From a virus (taxonomy: Duplodnaviria > Caudoviricetes), in IMG/VR virus record IMGVR_UViG_3300014827_000001, positions 1-59,958 of that record: DNA of 59,958 bases. The stretch is one strand, 5' to 3'. Both the position numbers and the translations under genes were made by a program. How positions within the stretch are numbered: position 1 is the stretch's first letter; every line of letters begins with the position of its first letter. Positions 37,043 to 45,808 of this stretch are shown here, one piece after another. The notes under the pieces were generated by a model. That model did no database searches. It was given only the letters and a program-made list of their open reading frames with translations, and was not told the origin of the DNA.

Positions 37043-38611
37043 CTAGCCCTTAGCCCCGGAGCGCGCGGCGTCTGTGGCGTCCTTGCGGTGCTGGTTGTCA
37101 CCGTAGGACTTCATGCTGCTGTCTGGCTTCTTGGCCCCGCCCAAGGCCGTCTGGTCAGCTGTCTTCTGGGCTGCTGCCTTCTGCTCAGCAGCCTGCTCAC
37201 CCGCGAGCGTGATGGACAGCAGCAGGTTCTTCATCTGGTCCTCAGTGGGCATCCCGTCATCGGTGTCGATGTCGAACGCCTTCAGGAGCAGTTCACGGAT
37301 TTCCTTATCCGACATGACGTTCAGACCTGCAGCCTGCTGAATGGACTGAATCTGGCGGTAGACGGCTTCCATGGCAATCGGCGGGAAGATCACGTCGATG
37401 TCCGGGTAGCCGAGGTATTCCAGGACACCGGAGAGGAACCTCTTATGCTCATCCTGCCGCGCTTTCATGACCTTCTCGTTGGAGTCCGAAAGGGTCTCAG
37501 CCGAGGAGCGGTTGGCGTCCCCGGCATCAGCGGTCAGTTCGTTCAGGGGCACGTTCAGGCCAGCTGCGACGTAGCCAGCCAGCGGGAGCCCAGCCTTGAA
37601 GTCCACGGAGCCGCCCGTGCGGCCCACCGAGGACAGCGTGGCACCACCAGCGCCGACAAAGGTGCTTCCCACGCCGTTGGACTCGCCCGTGAACGGGTCT
37701 CGGGAGGGCTGTGCGGCCACCTTGGTGGCGACGGCTCCTGCACCCGTGCGGGTGGGGAGTGTGGCCTTGAAAGCGAACTGGGAGTACGCCTTGACCAGCG
37801 TGGCCTGATTCTCCAGGAACTCCTTGTGTGCCTTGGCCCAGAACATGACGGGCATGATGTCAGGCACGCCCCACTTCCAGCCGGTCTGCTTGTTGACCGC
37901 GTGGTGGGCGATGACGGAGTTGTAGTTCACCGGGTAGCCCCGGATCATGCGCGGGCGTCCGCTGGCCTGCATGTCGTAGTCGATGGCCGGGACGTACTCG
38001 ATCACCATGGCGGAGGTCTCAGCCTCGGTGTCGGCACTGTTGACCACCCGGAGCCATTCACGACGGTAGAAGAAGATTTCCTCGTGGTTGTCCGGGTTCG
38101 AGACCGTGCCGGTGATCTGGATCAGGGGGAGCCGCATGAGCCCGCGCTTGGAATAGAACTTGTCCTTGGTGGCCAGCAGGAAGTAGTTGCCGTCCGTGCC
38201 AAGGCAGTCCTCCATCTCGGCGCACGCCTTGGGGGAGATGAGGTACTTCTGGGCATTGGGGGACTTGATGAACTTGTCTTTGAGGTCCAAGCCCTTGAAA
38301 TCGACGCCGCTGCCCCAGATGTACGCCTTGCGGACGGACATGCCACGCTTGACCAGGGGGTTGATGACCAGCAGCGCACGGGTAGTGCGCGCGGTCTTCT
38401 TGATCGTGTACAGGGGAACCTCGGTCATGTCGAGGTCTTCACCCATCGGGTTCCAGCCCTGGTTGTCCAGAGCCAGCACCACGTCGGCCATGTTCTCCTG
38501 AAGGATTTCCATGCCGTTCACGAGAGCGGTGTTTTCCACCTTCAGCTCTTCGAGTTGCGCAGCTGTCTTTGCGTCCAACTCGGCTGAATTGCCGAATCCC
38601 CACTTAGCCAT
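37043..38611 (-). CDS. Portal protein
   Basis: 522 aa directly after terminase; DGNYF, GVPD, D..NRSSAETL. Confidence 0.85.
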   Translation of the reverse strand: MAKWGFGNSAELDAKTAAQLEELKVENTALVNGMEILQENMADVVLALDNQGWNPMGEDLDMTEVPLYTIKKTARTTRALLVINPLVKRGMSVRKAYIWGSGVDFKGLDLKDKFIKSPNAQKYLISPKACAEMEDCLGTDGNYFLLATKDKFYSKRGLMRLPLIQITGTVSNPDNHEEIFFYRREWLRVVNSADTEAETSAMVIEYVPAIDYDMQASGRPRMIRGYPVNYNSVIAHHAVNKQTGWKWGVPDIMPVMFWAKAHKEFLENQATLVKAYSQFAFKATLPTRTGAGAVATKVAAQPSRDPFTGESNGVGSTFVGAGGATLSSVGRTGGSVDFKAGLPLAGYVAAGLNVPLNELTADAGDANRSSAETLSDSNEKVMKARQDEHKRFLSGVLEYLGYPDIDVIFPPIAMEAVYRQIQSIQQAAGLNVMSDKEIRELLLKAFDIDTDDGMPTEDQMKNLLLSITLAGEQAAEQKAAAQKTADQTALGGAKKPDSSMKSYGDNQHRKDATDAARSGAKG

Positions 38612-38673: not shown

Positions 38674-40182
38674 TCACATCGGGCTGATGATTGATTCCAT
38701 TTCGCTGAACATTTCTGCCAGAGATATTTCGTATTCGTCGCCGGGGCGGAGCTTGCTCACCGGGTCCGTGGGGTCGATGGACAAATCCATTGCCGCGTAG
38801 GCTGCGGCGTCGGCAAAGTCAGGGGATTTTCCGGTTTTAGCCCGTATTTCCTCTTTGGACGCCACCTGCAAAACACTGCGGGAGTTCTTGAAGTGATATT
38901 CCAAATCCCCGAGTTCGTCAATCATGTCCCGGTCATCTTCATCAATATCAATTCCACCATTGAGCATTCTTTCCCGAATGGTGTCATACATTTCGGCGCG
39001 GGTATTCAGCCATTTGTCGGGATCGGAGGCATGGGCGTTGCCGATAATACCAATTGTCTCGAAACGGTTCTCGGATTTGTTGGCCACCATTTCATAAACA
39101 CCGGCACCAATTCCCACGCCGTCAATGCGGACCTCATCAACACCTAATTCAAAGGCAATTTGCACAATTCGGGCCGCAGTTTCGGTCAAGGTGGTTTTAT
39201 TCCACTTGTCCACAAACCTCAGGACACCATCCCGATAAACATAAACCACCGAATAGTCGCCACCCATGCGGGCAACGTCCACGCCAAGGCGCGGTTTGGA
39301 CTCCTGCTTGATGGCCAGCTCGGTAACTCGGCCCATCGTCAGTGTGCCCTCGGGGAACAGCGCGTTGGTGCCGTCCATGGAGAACTCGCCCAGCACCTTT
39401 GAGCGGAAGCGTGGGGAATCCTCGCCCCATTTCTTCTTATGCAGCTCGATCCAGTCAAGGGTCACCAAACCACCTGAATGCTCCTCGGGGAAGTCCTCTC
39501 CCGTGATGTTGGGGGAGTCATAAGAGTTGATGGTGATCTTGTGCCATGACGGGTCATTAGTCTTCCAGATTTCCCCGAACGGAGTGTTCACGTCATCTGG
39601 ATTCCCCACTACCAGCGCTGCATCGTACTTACCCGTCGTAATGGCCGCTACAGCGGTAAAGATTGTCTCTGGGATGCCACACCCTTCATCAAGGACGGCG
39701 AGGACGCCTTGGCGTCGATGTTGACCCTGGAATGCATGTTGGTTTGTGTTACTTGGCTTACGGCCCTTGGCGCGTTCGGAGTCATCATCCCCGCGCCAGT
39801 CGTGCTCCAGAGTGATGCGTCCCGGCAGGGGGGTCTTCCGCTGCTTCGCCTTGATGTGGTGATCGCGGAGGTAGCCCCAGATGATATCGAGCTGATCCTG
39901 CACTGGTGCAGATGAGACAGCAAGGGAGTCTACGTTCTTCCGTGTATCAACCCACCAAGCGATAATGACCGACGCGGTAAAAGATTTTCCTACGCCGTGC
40001 CCGGACTTTACAGCGACTCGCCTATATTTGAGCAATGCCTCGGCAATTTCTGCCTGTTTTGCCCAGAGATGATACCCAAGCTTGTCTTTAGCCCACAATT
40101 TGATATCCGTTTTATACCGCTCATTCAGCTCAGCCTGTTCCAATTCCTTGGATGCTTGCCGCATGGCATCGAGAATACTCAT
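38674..40182 (-). CDS. terL: Terminase large subunit
   Basis: Walker A SGHGVGKS, VLDE, GNP, LGVDVAR.G.D, KSPD.ADA. Confidence 0.95.
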   Translation of the reverse strand: MSILDAMRQASKELEQAELNERYKTDIKLWAKDKLGYHLWAKQAEIAEALLKYRRVAVKSGHGVGKSFTASVIIAWWVDTRKNVDSLAVSSAPVQDQLDIIWGYLRDHHIKAKQRKTPLPGRITLEHDWRGDDDSERAKGRKPSNTNQHAFQGQHRRQGVLAVLDEGCGIPETIFTAVAAITTGKYDAALVVGNPDDVNTPFGEIWKTNDPSWHKITINSYDSPNITGEDFPEEHSGGLVTLDWIELHKKKWGEDSPRFRSKVLGEFSMDGTNALFPEGTLTMGRVTELAIKQESKPRLGVDVARMGGDYSVVYVYRDGVLRFVDKWNKTTLTETAARIVQIAFELGVDEVRIDGVGIGAGVYEMVANKSENRFETIGIIGNAHASDPDKWLNTRAEMYDTIRERMLNGGIDIDEDDRDMIDELGDLEYHFKNSRSVLQVASKEEIRAKTGKSPDFADAAAYAAMDLSIDPTDPVSKLRPGDEYEISLAEMFSEMESIISPM

Positions 40183-40409
40183 TAGGCGGGCAAATCCTGC
40201 TTCAGGCGGTAAAGAATTGTGTCAAATGCGGCTTGGTCTTCGTAAATTGCGTAGAATGCGCGCAAAAGGCCAATTACCACCGAATAGTGGGAATCCGTCA
40301 TTGAATACAGCCGGGTCCGAATTGCGGCCCAATCGGGCTCATGGCCGTCATTCTCATAAAAGAGGTCAAGAATTTCAATTACATCCGGGGTATAAAGTGC
40401 TTCGCTCAT
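40182..40409 (-). CDS. Hypothetical protein
   Basis: Coupled on both sides. Confidence 0.65.
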   Translation of the reverse strand: MSEALYTPDVIEILDLFYENDGHEPDWAAIRTRLYSMTDSHYSVVIGLLRAFYAIYEDQAAFDTILYRLKQDLPA

Positions 40410-40951
40410 GATTCTTGAACTTCCTGTGTCAGGACGCGCTGCGCCTCGGCGGTGAACAGTGTGGTCAGAACGCTGGGAGCCAGTTCGCCTTTGATGGCCT
40501 TGATGGTCTTGTGCTTCTCAAAGGCTGCTTCGATGTGCGTGCTCATGGCCGTGGCGAGGGCAAACACGGCTTGAAGAATCAGCTGGGTCTGGGCATTGGT
40601 GATCTGCACCAGCTTGTCCTGAGCGTCCCGCTTCATGTCCTTGTTGATGCCTTGGAGGGCTGCGAGTTCCTTCAACAGCTTGACCACAATCTCGTAGTCC
40701 TCGGCCCTGTCGGCGTATTTCAGTCGGTCATTGACCTTGGTGAGCAGGTTTTCGAGCCGGAGTTCCTGTAGAACGGCCATTTCCTCGGGGGACATAATTG
40801 TCCGGGAGTCTATGAACTCTTTCCAGGTGATGATGACCTGCTCGGGAATCACCCCTAGTTTGACCGATATTTCCTCGAACGTGAATCCTTTGACGCGCAA
40901 GGGGACAATCTGCGCCGTCAGGGCGTCCATTGTATTCGGGGAATCTTCCAT
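40406..40951 (-). CDS. Putative terminase small subunit (HTH)
   Basis: LRVKGFTFEEISVKLG HTH; upstream of terL; apparently leaderless after TAAACT. Confidence 0.65.
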   Translation of the reverse strand: MEDSPNTMDALTAQIVPLRVKGFTFEEISVKLGVIPEQVIITWKEFIDSRTIMSPEEMAVLQELRLENLLTKVNDRLKYADRAEDYEIVVKLLKELAALQGINKDMKRDAQDKLVQITNAQTQLILQAVFALATAMSTHIEAAFEKHKTIKAIKGELAPSVLTTLFTAEAQRVLTQEVQES

Positions 40952-40986
40952 GTCTGTAGTTTAGTACAGAGGCAATTCTGCATAGT

Positions 40987-41027
40987 AAAGCAAAGACCCC
41001 CAAGCGGCGGAAGTCGCTTGGGGGTCT
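40987..41027 (-). terminator. Intrinsic terminator closing the tRNA-like cluster
   Basis: AGACCCCCAAGCG-loop-CGCTTGGGGGTCT-TTGCTTT. Confidence 0.8.
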
Positions 41028-41093
41028 CGCTGAGGTTATCGCCCTCCGGCAAGAGCCATCGATCCAGTCAAGCTGGAGCCTATGCTGCTCTTG

Positions 41094-41157
41094 TGGGGTG
41101 CTGGGACTCGAACCCAGCGAGCTCCTGCCCGGTTATCACACCGTATTCGCTCACCCC
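41094..41157 (-). ncRNA. tRNA-like RNA 1 (reduced, no canonical D or anticodon arm)
   Basis: GGGGTG/CACCCC-A acceptor; CTGGG-TTCGAGT-CCCAG T arm; 64 nt. Confidence 0.6.
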
Positions 41158-41245
41158 TTGGCCCCTGCGTCCGGCCTATACGTTTACCGGCATTAGGTTC
41201 TTCGGGGCTTTTCCCTGAGTTCCTACTTATCGGTCACTCAGGTAG

Positions 41246-41364
41246 TGAAGCCAGCAGGATTCGAACCTGCGAGTTTCCTAACGCTTACACCAAGTCACAT
41301 AGAGGGATATCGCCCTCAGTCCCTGCGCGGTCGTTAGGTGCGTGATGCCCCTCGCCTCAGCTTC
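41246..41364 (-). ncRNA. tRNA-like RNA 2 with ~48-nt insertion in place of anticodon loop
   Basis: GAAGCTG/TGGCTTC-A; CCTAACG/CGTTAGG; GCAGG-TTCGAAT-CCTGC. Confidence 0.65.
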
Positions 41365-41458
41365 TACTATTCAGTTGTATGACCGCTAACGCCTGTTCCC
41401 CTCGGGGGTCGATTGCGCGGTCATCCTCAGATCGAACGTCTGAGAATCCTTTACTACG

Positions 41459-41593
41459 TCGGCTTGCAGGATTTGAACCTGTATCTCTCCCCCGCTGGGA
41501 AGTGTTCTGAACCCGTCCAGCAATTCTCAGACCAGTCCCCGTGCACGGGCGTCCTTTGATATGTAAGGCTACTCCAGATTGAACTATCAGCCG
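41459..41593 (-). ncRNA. tRNA-like RNA 3 with ~60-nt structured D-loop insertion
   Basis: CGGCT/AGCCG-A; TA-GTTC..GAAC D stem; CTTCC/GGGAG; CAGG-TTCAAAT-CCTG. Confidence 0.6.
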
Positions 41594-41613
41594 TTGTTGA
41601 TTGTTTGTTGAAA

Positions 41614-41733
41614 CTAAGCCGCTACTGATTCCTCGGTTGTTTCCGTGGAGAGCCAGTAGTTGGCCCAGATGGTGGCCGCCGCCTGGATGGCATCTGCTCG
41701 GGTTGAAAAGTACTCTCCCTTGTCTCGCCTCAC
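41614..41733 (-). CDS. 39-aa protein divergent from integrase
   Basis: AAGGAG RBS, GTG start; MRRDKGEYFSTRADAIQAAATIWANYWLSTETTEESVAA. Confidence 0.6.
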   Translation of the reverse strand: MRRDKGEYFSTRADAIQAAATIWANYWLSTETTEESVAA

Positions 41734-41771
41734 TGTGTGCTCTCCTTGTATGTGTTTGTTGGTATGAGAAG

Positions 41772-41801
41772 AACTTACAGCACAGATATACAGGGGGTCA
41801 A
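41772..41801 (-). promoter_or_regulatory. SigA-like promoter for small ORF and tRNA-like cluster
   Basis: TTGACC-N18-TAAGTT. Confidence 0.7.
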
Positions 41802-41833
41802 GGGGCTATTGACTACGGATTTAGAATTGGCCC

Positions 41834-43237
41834 ATGAGCAAGCCCAGAGCAGTCGCGTATGTCAGAGTCTCAAAAGAGCGGGACGGGGGCGTGTCCCCGG
41901 AAATCCAGCTGGACTCCATACAGGCACACTGCAAGCGTCTCGGCTACGACATCGTGGAGACACTGGAAGACCTTGACCTCTCGGGCCGGTTCTGGAAGCG
42001 CCGTCAAGTCGAGCAGGCCATTGCCATGATCGAAAACAAGCAGGCCGATGTGCTGGTGGTCTGGAAGATTTCACGGGTGAGTCGCAACCGGATGGACTGG
42101 GCGATTGCCGTTGACCGGGTGGAGAGCATTGGGGGTCGTCTGGAGTCGGCAACGGAGCCGATGGACACCACCACAAGCTCAGGCCGGTTCGCGCGCGGGA
42201 TGCTGGCAGAGCTGGCCGTCTTTGAGTCGGAGCGGATCGGGGACACCTGGAAAGAAACCCACGCGCGCAGGATTCGGAACGGCCTGCCCCACAACGCGCC
42301 CAAACACTTCGGGTACACCTACACCAAGGAGGCCGGATATGCCCCTGACGCGCACGAGGGGGCTGTTCTGCGGCAGTTGTACGTCCGCTACGTCCAAGGG
42401 TCAAGCATGAACGAATTAGGCGCTTACGCGGCCTCTGAGGGCTTCGAGCCGGAGACCGGCTGGCGCAAGGGCACCATCAGGAGATTCTTGGATAAGGGCT
42501 TCGGAGCTGGCTACCTCTGGGTCAAGGGCGAACTCATCCGTGGGGCACACGAAGCAGTGGTCTCCGAGGCCGAATGGATGGCCTACCGGGTCCGCCGTGA
42601 GGAGCGCGGGAGCCGTCCACGGGCCGAGAACTCCCCCTATGCCTACTCCGGTCTCCTGAAATGCCACTGCGGGGGAGTCATGGGAGGCGGGAACAGCAGG
42701 CGCGGGGACAAAATCTACAAGCGGTACGTGTGCCTGCTGGCCGATCAGAAGGGTACACACCCCTACAACACCATCTCGGAGCCGTACGTGGAGGCAGCAG
42801 TGCTCGCGTGGCTGGAATCGGTGGCTGCTGATCTGGACGCAGCTGCATCGACGGTCAAGGCTGAGCCGGTAAGTGTCAACATCCGGGCCAAGTCCTTACA
42901 GATCAAGGCCGATCTGGTCAAGACCAACAACCGGCTGGACGCTCTGACGATCAAGAACCTTGACGGCGAGGTCTCCAATGAGGTCTACACCCGGCTCAAA
43001 GCCAAACTGGAGGCTGACAAGGCCGCTCTGGAGTCCCGGCAGCGACTTGTGGAGGTCAACGCCACGGTTCGGCCCCAGGTGATCGTTCCGGCCCTTTTGG
43101 CAGGCTGGGCGGACGCCCCGGCCCGTGTGAAGCGCGAAACCCTGCGTGCTCTGGGCGTTTCCATCCACCTGAGTGACTGGGAAAACGGCGTAAAGACGGG
43201 GAAACGGACCATTACGGTGCTCGATCCTTGGGTGTAG
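41834..43237 (+). CDS. int: Large serine integrase
   Basis: YVRVS catalytic Ser, SRVSRN, recombinase domain, zinc ribbon (LLKCHCG..YVC), coiled coil. Confidence 0.95.
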   Translation: MSKPRAVAYVRVSKERDGGVSPEIQLDSIQAHCKRLGYDIVETLEDLDLSGRFWKRRQVEQAIAMIENKQADVLVVWKISRVSRNRMDWAIAVDRVESIGGRLESATEPMDTTTSSGRFARGMLAELAVFESERIGDTWKETHARRIRNGLPHNAPKHFGYTYTKEAGYAPDAHEGAVLRQLYVRYVQGSSMNELGAYAASEGFEPETGWRKGTIRRFLDKGFGAGYLWVKGELIRGAHEAVVSEAEWMAYRVRREERGSRPRAENSPYAYSGLLKCHCGGVMGGGNSRRGDKIYKRYVCLLADQKGTHPYNTISEPYVEAAVLAWLESVAADLDAAASTVKAEPVSVNIRAKSLQIKADLVKTNNRLDALTIKNLDGEVSNEVYTRLKAKLEADKAALESRQRLVEVNATVRPQVIVPALLAGWADAPARVKRETLRALGVSIHLSDWENGVKTGKRTITVLDPWV

Positions 43238-44621: not shown

Positions 44622-44872
44622 GCGGACACCAGCATCCTGAGAGATGCGTCAAGTTCAGCCTTTTCGCCTGCCCGGATGGTGGTAATGACATCGCCTCGGA
44701 AGGTCAGCACCCAATACTTATCGTGCTCCAGTGTTATTTCCACGCCATCTGCGAGATACGCAGTCCCATCTGGGAACACCCAGAGCCCCGTGTGGCCCAT
44801 TTCATCAATCATGAGGCACCGGGTTCCGTCAGGCACTGACTTGGAGCGGTCTCGTGGGTCTACGTTCTTCAT
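44618..44872 (-). CDS. Hypothetical protein
   Basis: ATGA-coupled. Confidence 0.65.
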   Translation of the reverse strand: MKNVDPRDRSKSVPDGTRCLMIDEMGHTGLWVFPDGTAYLADGVEITLEHDKYWVLTFRGDVITTIRAGEKAELDASLRMLVSA

Positions 44873-45324
44873 GCTGAGACCTTGGCTTTCGTGTGCTTGG
44901 AGTGGAGCGGCCTTTCATTGCCGTACCAGAGGACCGGGTGCTCCAGCTGGATGTACTTGGGGAGGTACGGGCGGGCCAGTTCCTTGGCGATGGTGACGTG
45001 GGGGTTGAAGCCGAACGTGGAGGGGCTGGTGATCCCGTACATTTCCAGTTCCCGCTCGATCCACTCCTGCTCAACGCGCAGGACATCGGATTCAAGGGTC
45101 AGGACCGGGGTTCTGCCCTCCTTGCCGAACAGTGCGGTGCCGGTGACCCTGCAGGCCCCAGGATCAAGCCCTTCCCACCTCAGCACCTCCTCGATGTCCT
45201 TCCGGTTGAACATCGTGGTGTCCGTGTTGCCGAGGAACAGGGCCGTGGCGTGCAGCTCGGGATCGGTACTTCCGAGGAACCATGCTGGCCAGACGATGGC
45301 GATTCCTGTGCTGTTGCCGCCCAT
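44869..45324 (-). CDS. 2H phosphoesterase (2'-5' RNA ligase / Acb1-like)
   Basis: Two HxT motifs: ELHATALF and FNPHVTIA. Confidence 0.8.
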   Translation of the reverse strand: MGGNSTGIAIVWPAWFLGSTDPELHATALFLGNTDTTMFNRKDIEEVLRWEGLDPGACRVTGTALFGKEGRTPVLTLESDVLRVEQEWIERELEMYGITSPSTFGFNPHVTIAKELARPYLPKYIQLEHPVLWYGNERPLHSKHTKAKVSA

Positions 45325-45515
45325 CACATGACCTTCCATTGGCGGGAAACAACAAGTGCGTCTTCTCCCCGGAGGAGCCAAAGTCTGCGGTCCTGCTCGG
45401 CCTGTGCGAGGGTGTTGCGACTGGCGTTCCCATAGGAATCCACACGATCTGGGATTCCCCCTTTGAGCGTTGGCCGGAGCACTGCAAACTCCTCGGGTCC
45501 GTGTAGGTCGCTCAT
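45324..45515 (-). CDS. Hypothetical protein
   Basis: Coupled ORF. Confidence 0.6.
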   Translation of the reverse strand: MSDLHGPEEFAVLRPTLKGGIPDRVDSYGNASRNTLAQAEQDRRLWLLRGEDALVVSRQWKVM

Positions 45516-45808
45516 TCTGTTCCTGCCTGAGCCTTGACGGCTGCCAGCAGGGCGGGCCGCTCATCGAGGGTGTTGTGCGTCTCGGGGGTGAAGTGCCCGT
45601 TCCGCTCGTGCTCGGTGAAGTGATGGGCGCACCAGAGGAGTTGGAGGGTCGAGTACAGGGACTCGGTGCGAACGTAGGCTGCTGACCCGCACTGGTCACA
45701 GCGGTCTGAGTGGCTCAGCCCACGGACTGGCTGGACCGGGGGAGTCCACACGGGTACGAGTGGCTTATTCATGGCCTTGGCGTGGGCCTCTGCTGCTGGG
45801 GTGCTCAT
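45512..45808 (-). CDS. Zn-finger-like hypothetical protein
   Basis: DRCDQCG.AAYV..L.WCAHH. Confidence 0.7.
   Translation of the reverse strand: MSTPAAEAHAKAMNKPLVPVWTPPVQPVRGLSHSDRCDQCGSAAYVRTESLYSTLQLLWCAHHFTEHERNGHFTPETHNTLDERPALLAAVKAQAGTE

Follow-up and report, generated by a model that had tools for sequence, protein, structure and literature searches.

Phage tRNA genes are usually seen as decoders, which supply codons or allow rescue from anticodon nucleases. Other outcomes are known: the tRNA region of phage T4 yields co-transcribed stable RNAs, species 1 and 2, which are matured by tRNA-processing enzymes, and mascRNA, from the 3′ end of MALAT1, is a non-decoding mimic of an acceptor and T arm at which an RNase P cut defines the end of the neighbouring RNA. 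Here we analyse an array of three tRNA-like elements (RNA1, RNA2 and RNA3) that alternate with structured RNA modules on the minus strand of a virus record that looks complete (59,958 bp; IMGVR_UViG_3300014827_000001; this whole stretch is called the window below). Like the window, the T4 cluster is a phage tRNA-region transcript containing non-tRNA or tRNA-like RNAs. However, the T4 tRNAs decode and belong to a lytic phage of a different host, whereas none of the three elements of the window can decode and the motifs flanking them form conserved families. As for mascRNA, it is a eukaryotic nuclear RNA whose likeness to RNA1 is one of shape only; its Rfam model (RF01684) gave RNA1 16.6 bits and an E-value of 3.6, against a threshold of 42.5 bits, and was rejected.

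The closest match in the proposed working is found in a eukaryotic virus. According to PMC4838037, the TMERs (tRNA-miRNA-encoded RNAs) of murine gammaherpesvirus 68 carry tRNA-like elements, which are not aminoacylated, followed by precursor microRNA hairpins freed by tRNase Z, and thus form, like the window, a viral array of tRNA-likes adjoining structured small RNAs. They differ in being single RNA polymerase III units with a Dicer-processed precursor microRNA cargo, whereas the window has one bacterial promoter, modules on both sides of its tRNA-likes, no sequence relation to the TMERs and a processing that is predicted. GOLLD and ROOL, as presented in a preprint (bioRxiv 10.1101/2024.12.08.627333), are structured non-coding RNAs of phages and prophages that lie by tRNA islands; tRNAs sometimes sit inside the GOLLD linker, and GOLLD also occurs in Mycobacterium tRNA arrays. 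The window differs from both in being a modular mosaic and not a single conserved fold, and neither Rfam model has a match in the window or among the related loci that were scanned. Finally, actinophages carry tRNA genes, some of them beside the integrase gene (PMC10865867; PMC10264068), and relatives of this phage have such tRNAs in the same slots. Canonical phage tRNAs, including those with altered, nuclease-evading anticodon loops and those required for lysogeny, still decode, whereas the window elements have no 7-nt anticodon loop and fail both ARAGORN and the Rfam tRNA model. The integrase of the window is a serine recombinase and that of the lysogeny study is of the tyrosine type; tRNA-dependent lysogeny was set aside, the window having no decoding tRNA. 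In the literature searched we found no description of tRNA-like arrays or of the modules described below in actinophages, the supplements, which possibly hold motif lists, lying outside that search.

A first-pass annotation, made from the letters of the sequence, had described between 40987 and 41801 a dedicated transcription unit made of a promoter, a 39-aa open reading frame (ORF), three tRNA-like elements and a strong terminator. Each of these parts is present on the minus strand where it had been placed (Table 1), and relatives conserve the whole unit, from promoter and small ORF to RNA array and terminator. The elements and the modules between them, which we call motif A, module E and module F, follow one another in the order RNA3, E, RNA2, A, RNA1, F, terminator; each module stands 0-3 nt from the tRNA-like that adjoins it. 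No conserved module thus has a border other than a tRNA-like end or the terminator.

Table 1. Features of the array and of its surroundings, in window coordinates
Feature	Position	Strand	Description
Promoter	41772..41801	-	-35 TTGACC at 41801-41796, 18-nt spacer, -10-like TAAGTT at 41777-41772
39-aa ORF	41614..41733	-	GTG start, AAGGAGA upstream resembling a Shine-Dalgarno sequence, Ala-Ala-stop end
RNA3, 135 nt	41459..41593	-	5-bp acceptor; T stem with one A.C mismatch; GGTTCAA-type T loop; discriminator A
Module E	41365..41455	-	Conserved hairpin, variable long hairpin (ATGACCGC/GCGGTCAT helix), conserved 3′ tail ACUGAAUAG
RNA2, 119 nt	41246..41364	-	7-bp acceptor including 2 G.U pairs, 3-bp D stem, 5-bp T stem, discriminator A
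RNA2 anticodon-loop insert, 45 nt	41288..41332	-	No match in any fetched locus
Motif A, ~87 nt	41158..41245	-	P1 hairpin with conserved 16-18-nt loop; P2 enclosing P3 hairpin
RNA1, 64 nt	41094..41157	-	6-bp acceptor, one interior hairpin, canonical 5-bp T arm, discriminator A
Module F	41029..41092	-	Closing stem AAGAGC/GCUCUU, variable inner hairpin, conserved 3′ hairpin
Intrinsic terminator	40987..41026	-	Hairpin 41026-40995 plus T-rich tail to 40987; called by terminator scan
TerS-like DNA-binding protein gene	40406..40951	-	PHROGs; protein used as query for related arrays
Large terminase gene	38674-40182	-	PHROGs; beyond TerS-like gene
Portal gene	37043-38611	-	PHROGs; beyond large terminase gene
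Large serine integrase gene, divergent	41834..43237	+	Pfam Resolvase (1.4e-28), Recombinase, Zn_ribbon_recom

The reading we favour, while giving it somewhat less than an even chance, is that of a conserved non-coding RNA operon in a family of temperate Arthrobacter-type phages, punctuated by tRNA-like elements and processed by RNase P and RNase Z. Transcription would start from a sigma-70-type promoter pointing away from the integrase gene and pass through a small protein gene into an array of ~620 nt, in which tRNA-derived elements would alternate with the non-tRNA modules E, A and F until a terminator closes the unit. The acceptor/T-arm minihelix is recognised by RNase P, RNase Z and the CCA-adding enzyme, and the elements keep only what these three need, an acceptor stacked on a T arm and a discriminator. 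Host RNase P would cut at each tRNA-like 5′ end, and RNase Z or an equivalent after each discriminator, turning the primary transcript into discrete stable RNAs: E, A, F with the terminator, and the tRNA-like pieces. We infer the transcription, the cleavages and the roles of the released RNAs; the layout fits the part of processing scaffold that the first-pass annotation had given to the tRNA shell. If punctuation is the true explanation, the array would be a bacterial-virus counterpart of the herpesvirus TMER strategy, as far as the literature searched goes, and a natural version of the engineered tRNA-spaced guide-RNA arrays that already exist.

What had been called spacers between the elements are conserved, covarying RNAs; the four helices named in them are all present, three within modules conserved in relatives. 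Segments of the window were searched by blastn against all fetched loci (E <= 1e-3), with five near-identical copies of the window excluded. Motif A matched 37 loci, module F 17, module E 6, the terminator region 20 and the promoter with the ORF 32, these being counts of matching loci, many of which are duplicate fetches of one contig; RNA1, RNA2 and RNA3 matched 0 loci each. A, E and F have no family in Rfam release 15, and A gave no Rfam match up to E 10, also when searched alone.

A model of motif A built from five copies (R1) gave the window copy 98 bits and found 21 matches, 20 of them distinct, in which 93.3% of the cells are paired and 8 of 19 pairs show a compensatory change. Its covariation score of 0.357 was reached by none of 500 shuffles, slid controls staying at or below 0.089, and it folds better than shuffles (z = -2.91). 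Module E, known in 5 distinct copies, has a compensatory change in 5 of its 16 predicted pairs, and the closing pair of module F covaries, A-U against U-A, 4 copies against 6. The compensatory pairs of all three modules and, for motif A, the paired cells and the covariation beyond that of shuffles argue that they are real RNAs.

Furthermore, the tRNA-likes directly abut these structured RNAs. A tRNA or tRNA-like follows motif A in 18 of the 20 distinct copies (counted by hand from coordinates); the gap is of 3 nt or less in 11 of these 18, and in the other 7 a short extension hairpin intervenes. Module F is a conserved tRNA 3′-trailer motif, all 10 distinct copies starting one base after a tRNA or tRNA-like discriminator. 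The 3′ tail of module E ends 2 nt before RNA2. Judging from these positions, motif A probably acts as a 5′-leader motif of tRNAs.

Motif A is also found outside this phage family, beside a tRNA-His in a replication module (L005; loci are cited by L numbers) and beside a tRNA-Asn in a Pseudarthrobacter prophage (L043). Two cultured Arthrobacter phages carry it: Nandita (L002, 837-924), directly after a tRNA-Ser(gct), and Cole (L001, 472-558), before a helix-turn-helix (HTH) gene and without any tRNA. In both it is close to the left end of the genome, immediately upstream of an HTH gene and of the genes for the terminase. In Cole motif A overlaps with the end of gene 1, a nucleotidyl transferase by annotation, and the proteins adjoining it in the two phages have no Pfam family. 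Modules A, E and F, and the micro-protein ending in Ala-Ala that opens the array, can be tested in culturable Arthrobacter phages, Cole and Nandita carrying motif A. An exact 14-mer pattern scan of genome contigs returned 120 loci, all of which except L043 were chance matches by model search. A pattern scan of metagenomes gave 79 loci; these and the new viral pattern matches made up 83 loci put to model R1, which matched 8 of them, on 6 different contigs. In the family to which the Pseudarthrobacter genome belongs, 151 genomes were searched with R1, which matched only the centre genome itself and none of the others.

Window positions 41365-41450, in module E, are 96% identical over 81 nt to L283 (968-1048), whereas the TerS-like proteins of the two are only 61% identical; from this difference, the comparison points to a recent horizontal exchange of a single RNA module. 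We compared DNA contigs from four soil runs, three of them possibly the source of the window itself, with the region. One contig joins 41093 to 41367, RNA1, A and RNA2 (273 nt) being replaced by 166 other bases, and another joins 41451 to 41648, lacking RNA3 and having instead the ORF end seen in L153 and L183. The breakpoints of these changes coincide with module borders, and modules are thus acquired, lost and exchanged as cassettes, RNA3 and the RNA2 block being accessory.

The three elements of the array were correctly predicted to escape tRNA finders. ARAGORN found 0 tRNAs and 0 transfer-messenger RNAs (tmRNAs) in the whole window, Rfam at gathering scores gave no match in the array region, and the tRNA model RF00005 (threshold 29 bits) was absent among the six matches listed up to E 10. 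The weak matches of the E-value searches (Plastid-ycf2, rnk leader, mascRNA, snoRNAs and permuted tmRNA) were rejected, being all far below threshold. When introns are allowed, ARAGORN draws RNA2 as a 75-nt tRNA-Leu(aag) cloverleaf with the 45-nt insert between positions 32 and 33, a non-canonical place for an intron; RNA2 is the only element of the window that can be so drawn. RNA3, in which a ~50-nt insertion enlarges the D region, aligns lengthwise to a 72-nt tRNA-like of L157 with a score of 66.5 (30 +/- 4.3 for shuffles, reached by 0 of 300), and its region aligned to the anticodon arm of that element has a loop of ~12 nt. RNA1 has neither D arm nor anticodon arm and fills the slot after motif A, which holds tRNAs in relatives. 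The anatomy given in the first-pass annotation is thus right: an enlarged D arm in RNA3, an enlarged anticodon arm in RNA2 and the loss of both arms in RNA1. An acceptor, a GTTCRA-type T arm and a discriminator are present in RNA1 and RNA2 and weaker in RNA3, and in none of the three is there a 7-nt anticodon loop on a 5-bp stem. RNA1 folds better than shuffles (z = -2.92), and RNA2 (z = -0.76) and RNA3 (z = +0.17) do not. A loose scan for a T arm plus acceptor found 10 sites in the window and 9.5 in random sequence; such a scan is no evidence by itself. Of the 22 GGTTCRA words of the window, 3 lie within 365 nt on one strand.

Several known RNAs were compared with these elements. A tmRNA is not found by ARAGORN in any of 22 arrays, and tmRNA_permuted of Rfam gave 14.8 bits against a threshold of 47. 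For the bacterial Y RNA YrlA, which has a tRNA-like module, there was no Rfam match, and none of the 20 window ORFs searched in Pfam, out of ~100, was Ro-like; its topology probably also differs from that of the window elements, whose ends lie in the acceptor stem. RNA1 and RNA2 are no attP-type copies of the 3′ half of a host tRNA, because blastn against the Pseudarthrobacter genome gave only T-arm-sized matches of 14-21 nt.

The related arrays show what else these slots can hold. Related loci were found through the TerS-like protein and through DNA patterns, and comprise 22 distinct arrays, that is the window and 21 relatives; the integrase as single-protein query, and a pattern scan for the interior of the B2 element described below, returned only loci already in the set. 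All 22, as far as their contigs reach, have the integrase, the promoter, an ORF of 28-45 aa, the RNA array, the terminator and the TerS-like gene, while in content the arrays are mosaics. The tRNA model of Rfam (E-value mode) is passed by 10 elements in 8 of the 18 arrays scanned. As the same slots hold model-passing tRNAs in these relatives, the three elements of the window derive from tRNA genes; as first proposed, they are not decoding tRNAs.

Only 4 of the 10 have ordinary anticodon loops according to ARAGORN (Trp in L272, Asn and Gln in L283, Asn in L287). The remaining model-passing elements form one lineage, which we call tRNA-X (L155, L269/L270, L284, L281 and L171). Pairing reaches 99% in the acceptor, D and T stems of this lineage, where 5 of 16 pairs show a compensatory change. 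The pairwise identity is 82.7% (acceptor), 86.8% (D arm) and 85.7% (variable loop), against 32.1% in the anticodon-arm region. This last region is of 16-27 nt and, by reading, has loops of 3, 6 or 9 nt, not 7; the closed-loop anticodon arm, also by reading, is itself conserved between L155 and L269, with a compensatory change. Other arrays carry, again by reading, non-decoding elements of 75 nt with a 5-nt loop (L156, L172) or of 72 nt with a 4-nt loop (L274, L282). In L183 (1737-1795, minus strand) and L169 (1220-1278, minus strand) we found tRNA-likes of 59 nt with no D arm, whose single 7-bp hairpin has a 7-nt loop and two compensatory changes. One loop is centred on GUA and the other on CUA, which would read amber; as U33 is missing from both, decoding is doubtful. 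The B2 mini element of 61-62 nt (L003, L155, L157, L281) has a conserved interior and a T stem changed on both strands. L269 and L272 also carry long elements (~113-120 nt) in which the shell is conserved and the centre varies. The slot is filled otherwise in L152 (2620-2740), L159 (2200-2320) and L160 (1040-1160), where there is no tRNA-like and another conserved structured RNA, module D, is found; apparent compensatory changes are seen in it between L152 and L159, and its only Rfam match is ctRNA_p42d (26.6 bits, E 0.15).

Between RNA1 and its counterpart in L153 the acceptor is the same and the T arm nearly so, and the alignable flanks are conserved, while the 34-nt interior is unalignable. 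We take this divergence to represent enough time for unconstrained sites to change, since the TerS-like proteins of the window and L153 are only 80% identical. That the shell is shared while the interior is unalignable, and that the tRNA-X stems remain paired while the anticodon region has diverged, argues that the shell is selected. The recurrent pattern in relatives is selection on the tRNA body and none on decoding. This phage family keeps selected tRNA bodies, drops the anticodon loop and adds conserved leader and trailer RNAs that lie outside the RNA family libraries, so that A, E and F stand as three new candidate RNA families beside a conserved lineage of non-decoding phage tRNAs.

Several observations weigh against punctuation as the whole explanation. 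If the elements served only as punctuation, their interiors should vary freely. Yet B2 keeps an interior ~90% identical (by eye) in 4 of the 5 copies sharing its acceptor, and the two compensatory changes of L183 and L169 lie in an interior hairpin, which suggests that at least some of these pieces function as RNAs themselves. No tRNA-like element at all is present in the arrays of L152, L159 and L160. Motif A does not depend on tRNA processing, since in Cole it stands before a protein gene with no tRNA. In the window itself, the acceptor of RNA3 is weak (5 bp) and its T stem contains a mismatch. For RNA2 and RNA3 blastn gave no orthologue among the fetched loci, and for that reason selection on them cannot be shown.

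The conserved interior of B2 would fit a role as decoys or sponges, an explanation that we consider unlikely but the most serious of the alternatives. CCA-tailed, non-decoding tRNA bodies would titrate host factors that read the acceptor end or the elbow independently of the anticodon; toxins that modify or extend the tRNA 3′ end are examples of such targets. The mimics could also sequester tRNA-handling enzymes, A and F then serving only for mimic biogenesis. In favour of decoys are the selection on acceptor, D and T arms with none on the decoding loop, the abnormal size of the anticodon loops (3, 4, 5, 6 or 9 nt by reading) and the fast turnover of tRNA-likes among close relatives, as in an arms race. 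Phage tRNAs have already been proposed as an answer to tRNA-targeting defence (PMC10264068). However, anticodon nucleases, the best-known of these defences, would not be decoyed by elements without an anticodon loop, the higher conservation of A and F than of the supposed effectors is left unexplained, and both RNA3 and the block of RNA2, A and RNA1 are dispensable in co-occurring variants. A more elaborate form of the idea, which we hold to be rather improbable, is that A as 5′ leader, a swappable non-decoding tRNA body whose anticodon arm is hypervariable, and F as 3′ trailer make up a cassette producing tRNA mimics that manipulate host readers of the acceptor end or elbow, for example to neutralise abortive-infection toxins that modify the acceptor end; motif A may then dock on the tRNA elbow in cis. 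If mimicry is the true explanation, it would represent a new class of RNA-level counter-defence.

Simple decay of a tRNA cluster also seems rather improbable to us. Under this explanation former tRNA genes lie behind a conserved leader and are here pseudogenes, only the modules and the small protein being of importance. The first-pass annotation had foreseen that, were this so, relatives would have ordinary tRNAs at this place with no conservation or covariation of the inserts. The first half holds, canonical Trp, Asn and Gln tRNAs being found in the arrays of relatives; but because the non-decoding forms are conserved with covariation, we do not regard simple decay as the explanation. Within the window there is much that would agree with it: blastn gave no homologue of RNA1-3, insertions interrupt RNA2 and RNA3, which fold no better than shuffles, the acceptor and T stems of RNA3 are imperfect, and there are co-occurring variants that lack RNA3 or the RNA2 block. 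But decay should fall equally on the anticodon arm and on the acceptor and T stems, and this is contradicted by tRNA-X, with its nearly complete pairing and compensatory changes, by the stems shared between RNA1 and L153 around an interior diverged beyond alignment, and by the closed-loop anticodon arm conserved between L155 and L269. The recurrence of the pattern in relatives thus speaks against plain decay; it is also no evidence that the inserts of RNA2 and RNA3 matter.

It is very improbable that the ~620-nt array remains unprocessed as one ornate RNA with embedded tRNA-like domains, as has been proposed for GOLLD. The array is phage-borne, dense in conserved helices and has tRNA-like domains embedded in it, and GOLLD and ROOL are themselves phage RNAs near tRNA islands (bioRxiv 10.1101/2024.12.08.627333), but it matches neither of their Rfam models, its modules are shuffled, lost and replaced independently among relatives, which is hard to square with one global fold, and motif A also occurs alone in unrelated phage contexts. 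Very improbable too is the idea of the first-pass annotation that the shell is a scaffold for cargo, the RNA2 and RNA3 inserts and the RNA1 interior being functional aptamers, guides or regulators: three lineages (tRNA-X, the long L269/L272 type and RNA1/L153) combine a conserved shell with an anticodon-arm region that is hypervariable, and inserts of 45-50 nt persist instead of being deleted, but the inserts have no blastn homologue in the fetched loci, no excess folding stability, and are missing from co-occurring variants.

Around the tRNA-like elements, the parts of the unit that are not tRNA-like also show conservation. The promoter was not called by the promoter scan tool, because TAAGTT fits TATAAT at 3 of 6 positions; a pattern TTGnCn / 17-18 nt / TAnnnT is found by eye at the same place in the 12 related arrays read for it. 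The small ORF that opens each array belongs to a conserved family of small proteins of 28-45 aa, whose members end in AA in all 21 arrays compared (by script in 20, by eye in L287), an end that resembles the C-terminal Ala-Ala of tmRNA degradation tags. A common motif of the type EQAIQ...W/Y..YWLS is seen in the window, L003, L152-L160, L169-L172, L183 and L269-L287, and in many relatives the final codons overlap a conserved RNA hairpin. The 39-aa ORF has no Pfam family, and its sole PHROG match, at E 0.22, was treated as none.

The terminator hairpin is GC-rich. When it was read by eye against those of L155, L156, L169, L171, L172, L217, L269, L272, L274 and L282, the upper stem was seen to covary while the loop ACUUCC(A/G)C is retained in most. 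Such conservation of the loop is unusual for a plain terminator and, the upper stem covarying beneath it, hints at a binding or seed function.

In the orientation of the array, the TerS-like gene, the large terminase and the portal follow downstream on the same strand, and the serine integrase lies upstream and divergent. The closest named phages by the portal protein are Arthrobacter phages (44-48% identity), and the single bacterial genome with a piece of the array is a Pseudarthrobacter. From the integrase, the portal matches and this genome we conclude that the window is a temperate soil phage of a Micrococcaceae-type host. An attP inside the array was considered and set aside, the stretch from the integrase start to the array promoter resembling, by eye, the integrase's own promoter. 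For motif A, possible resemblances to a self-cleaving ribozyme, a put-like antiterminator and a T-box-like elbow binder were likewise considered and set aside.

The two genes bordering the array have a peculiar start. Upstream of the TerS-like gene (40951-40975, minus strand) a -10-like TAAACT ends 6 nt before the start codon, and upstream of the integrase gene (41805-41836, plus strand) a -10-like TAGAAT ends likewise 6 nt before it, neither gene having a Shine-Dalgarno sequence; the hexamer upstream of the TerS-like gene is kept in relatives. Because these hexamers lie so close to the start codons and a Shine-Dalgarno sequence is absent, the arrangement suggests that both mRNAs are leaderless. 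Finally, 3 kb upstream of the array, a 276-aa protein (44869-45699, minus strand) has a sub-threshold match to the 2′-5′ RNA ligase / 2H phosphoesterase superfamily (20.6 bits, cut-off 27), and could have a bearing on RNA end chemistry or on cyclic-nucleotide defence.

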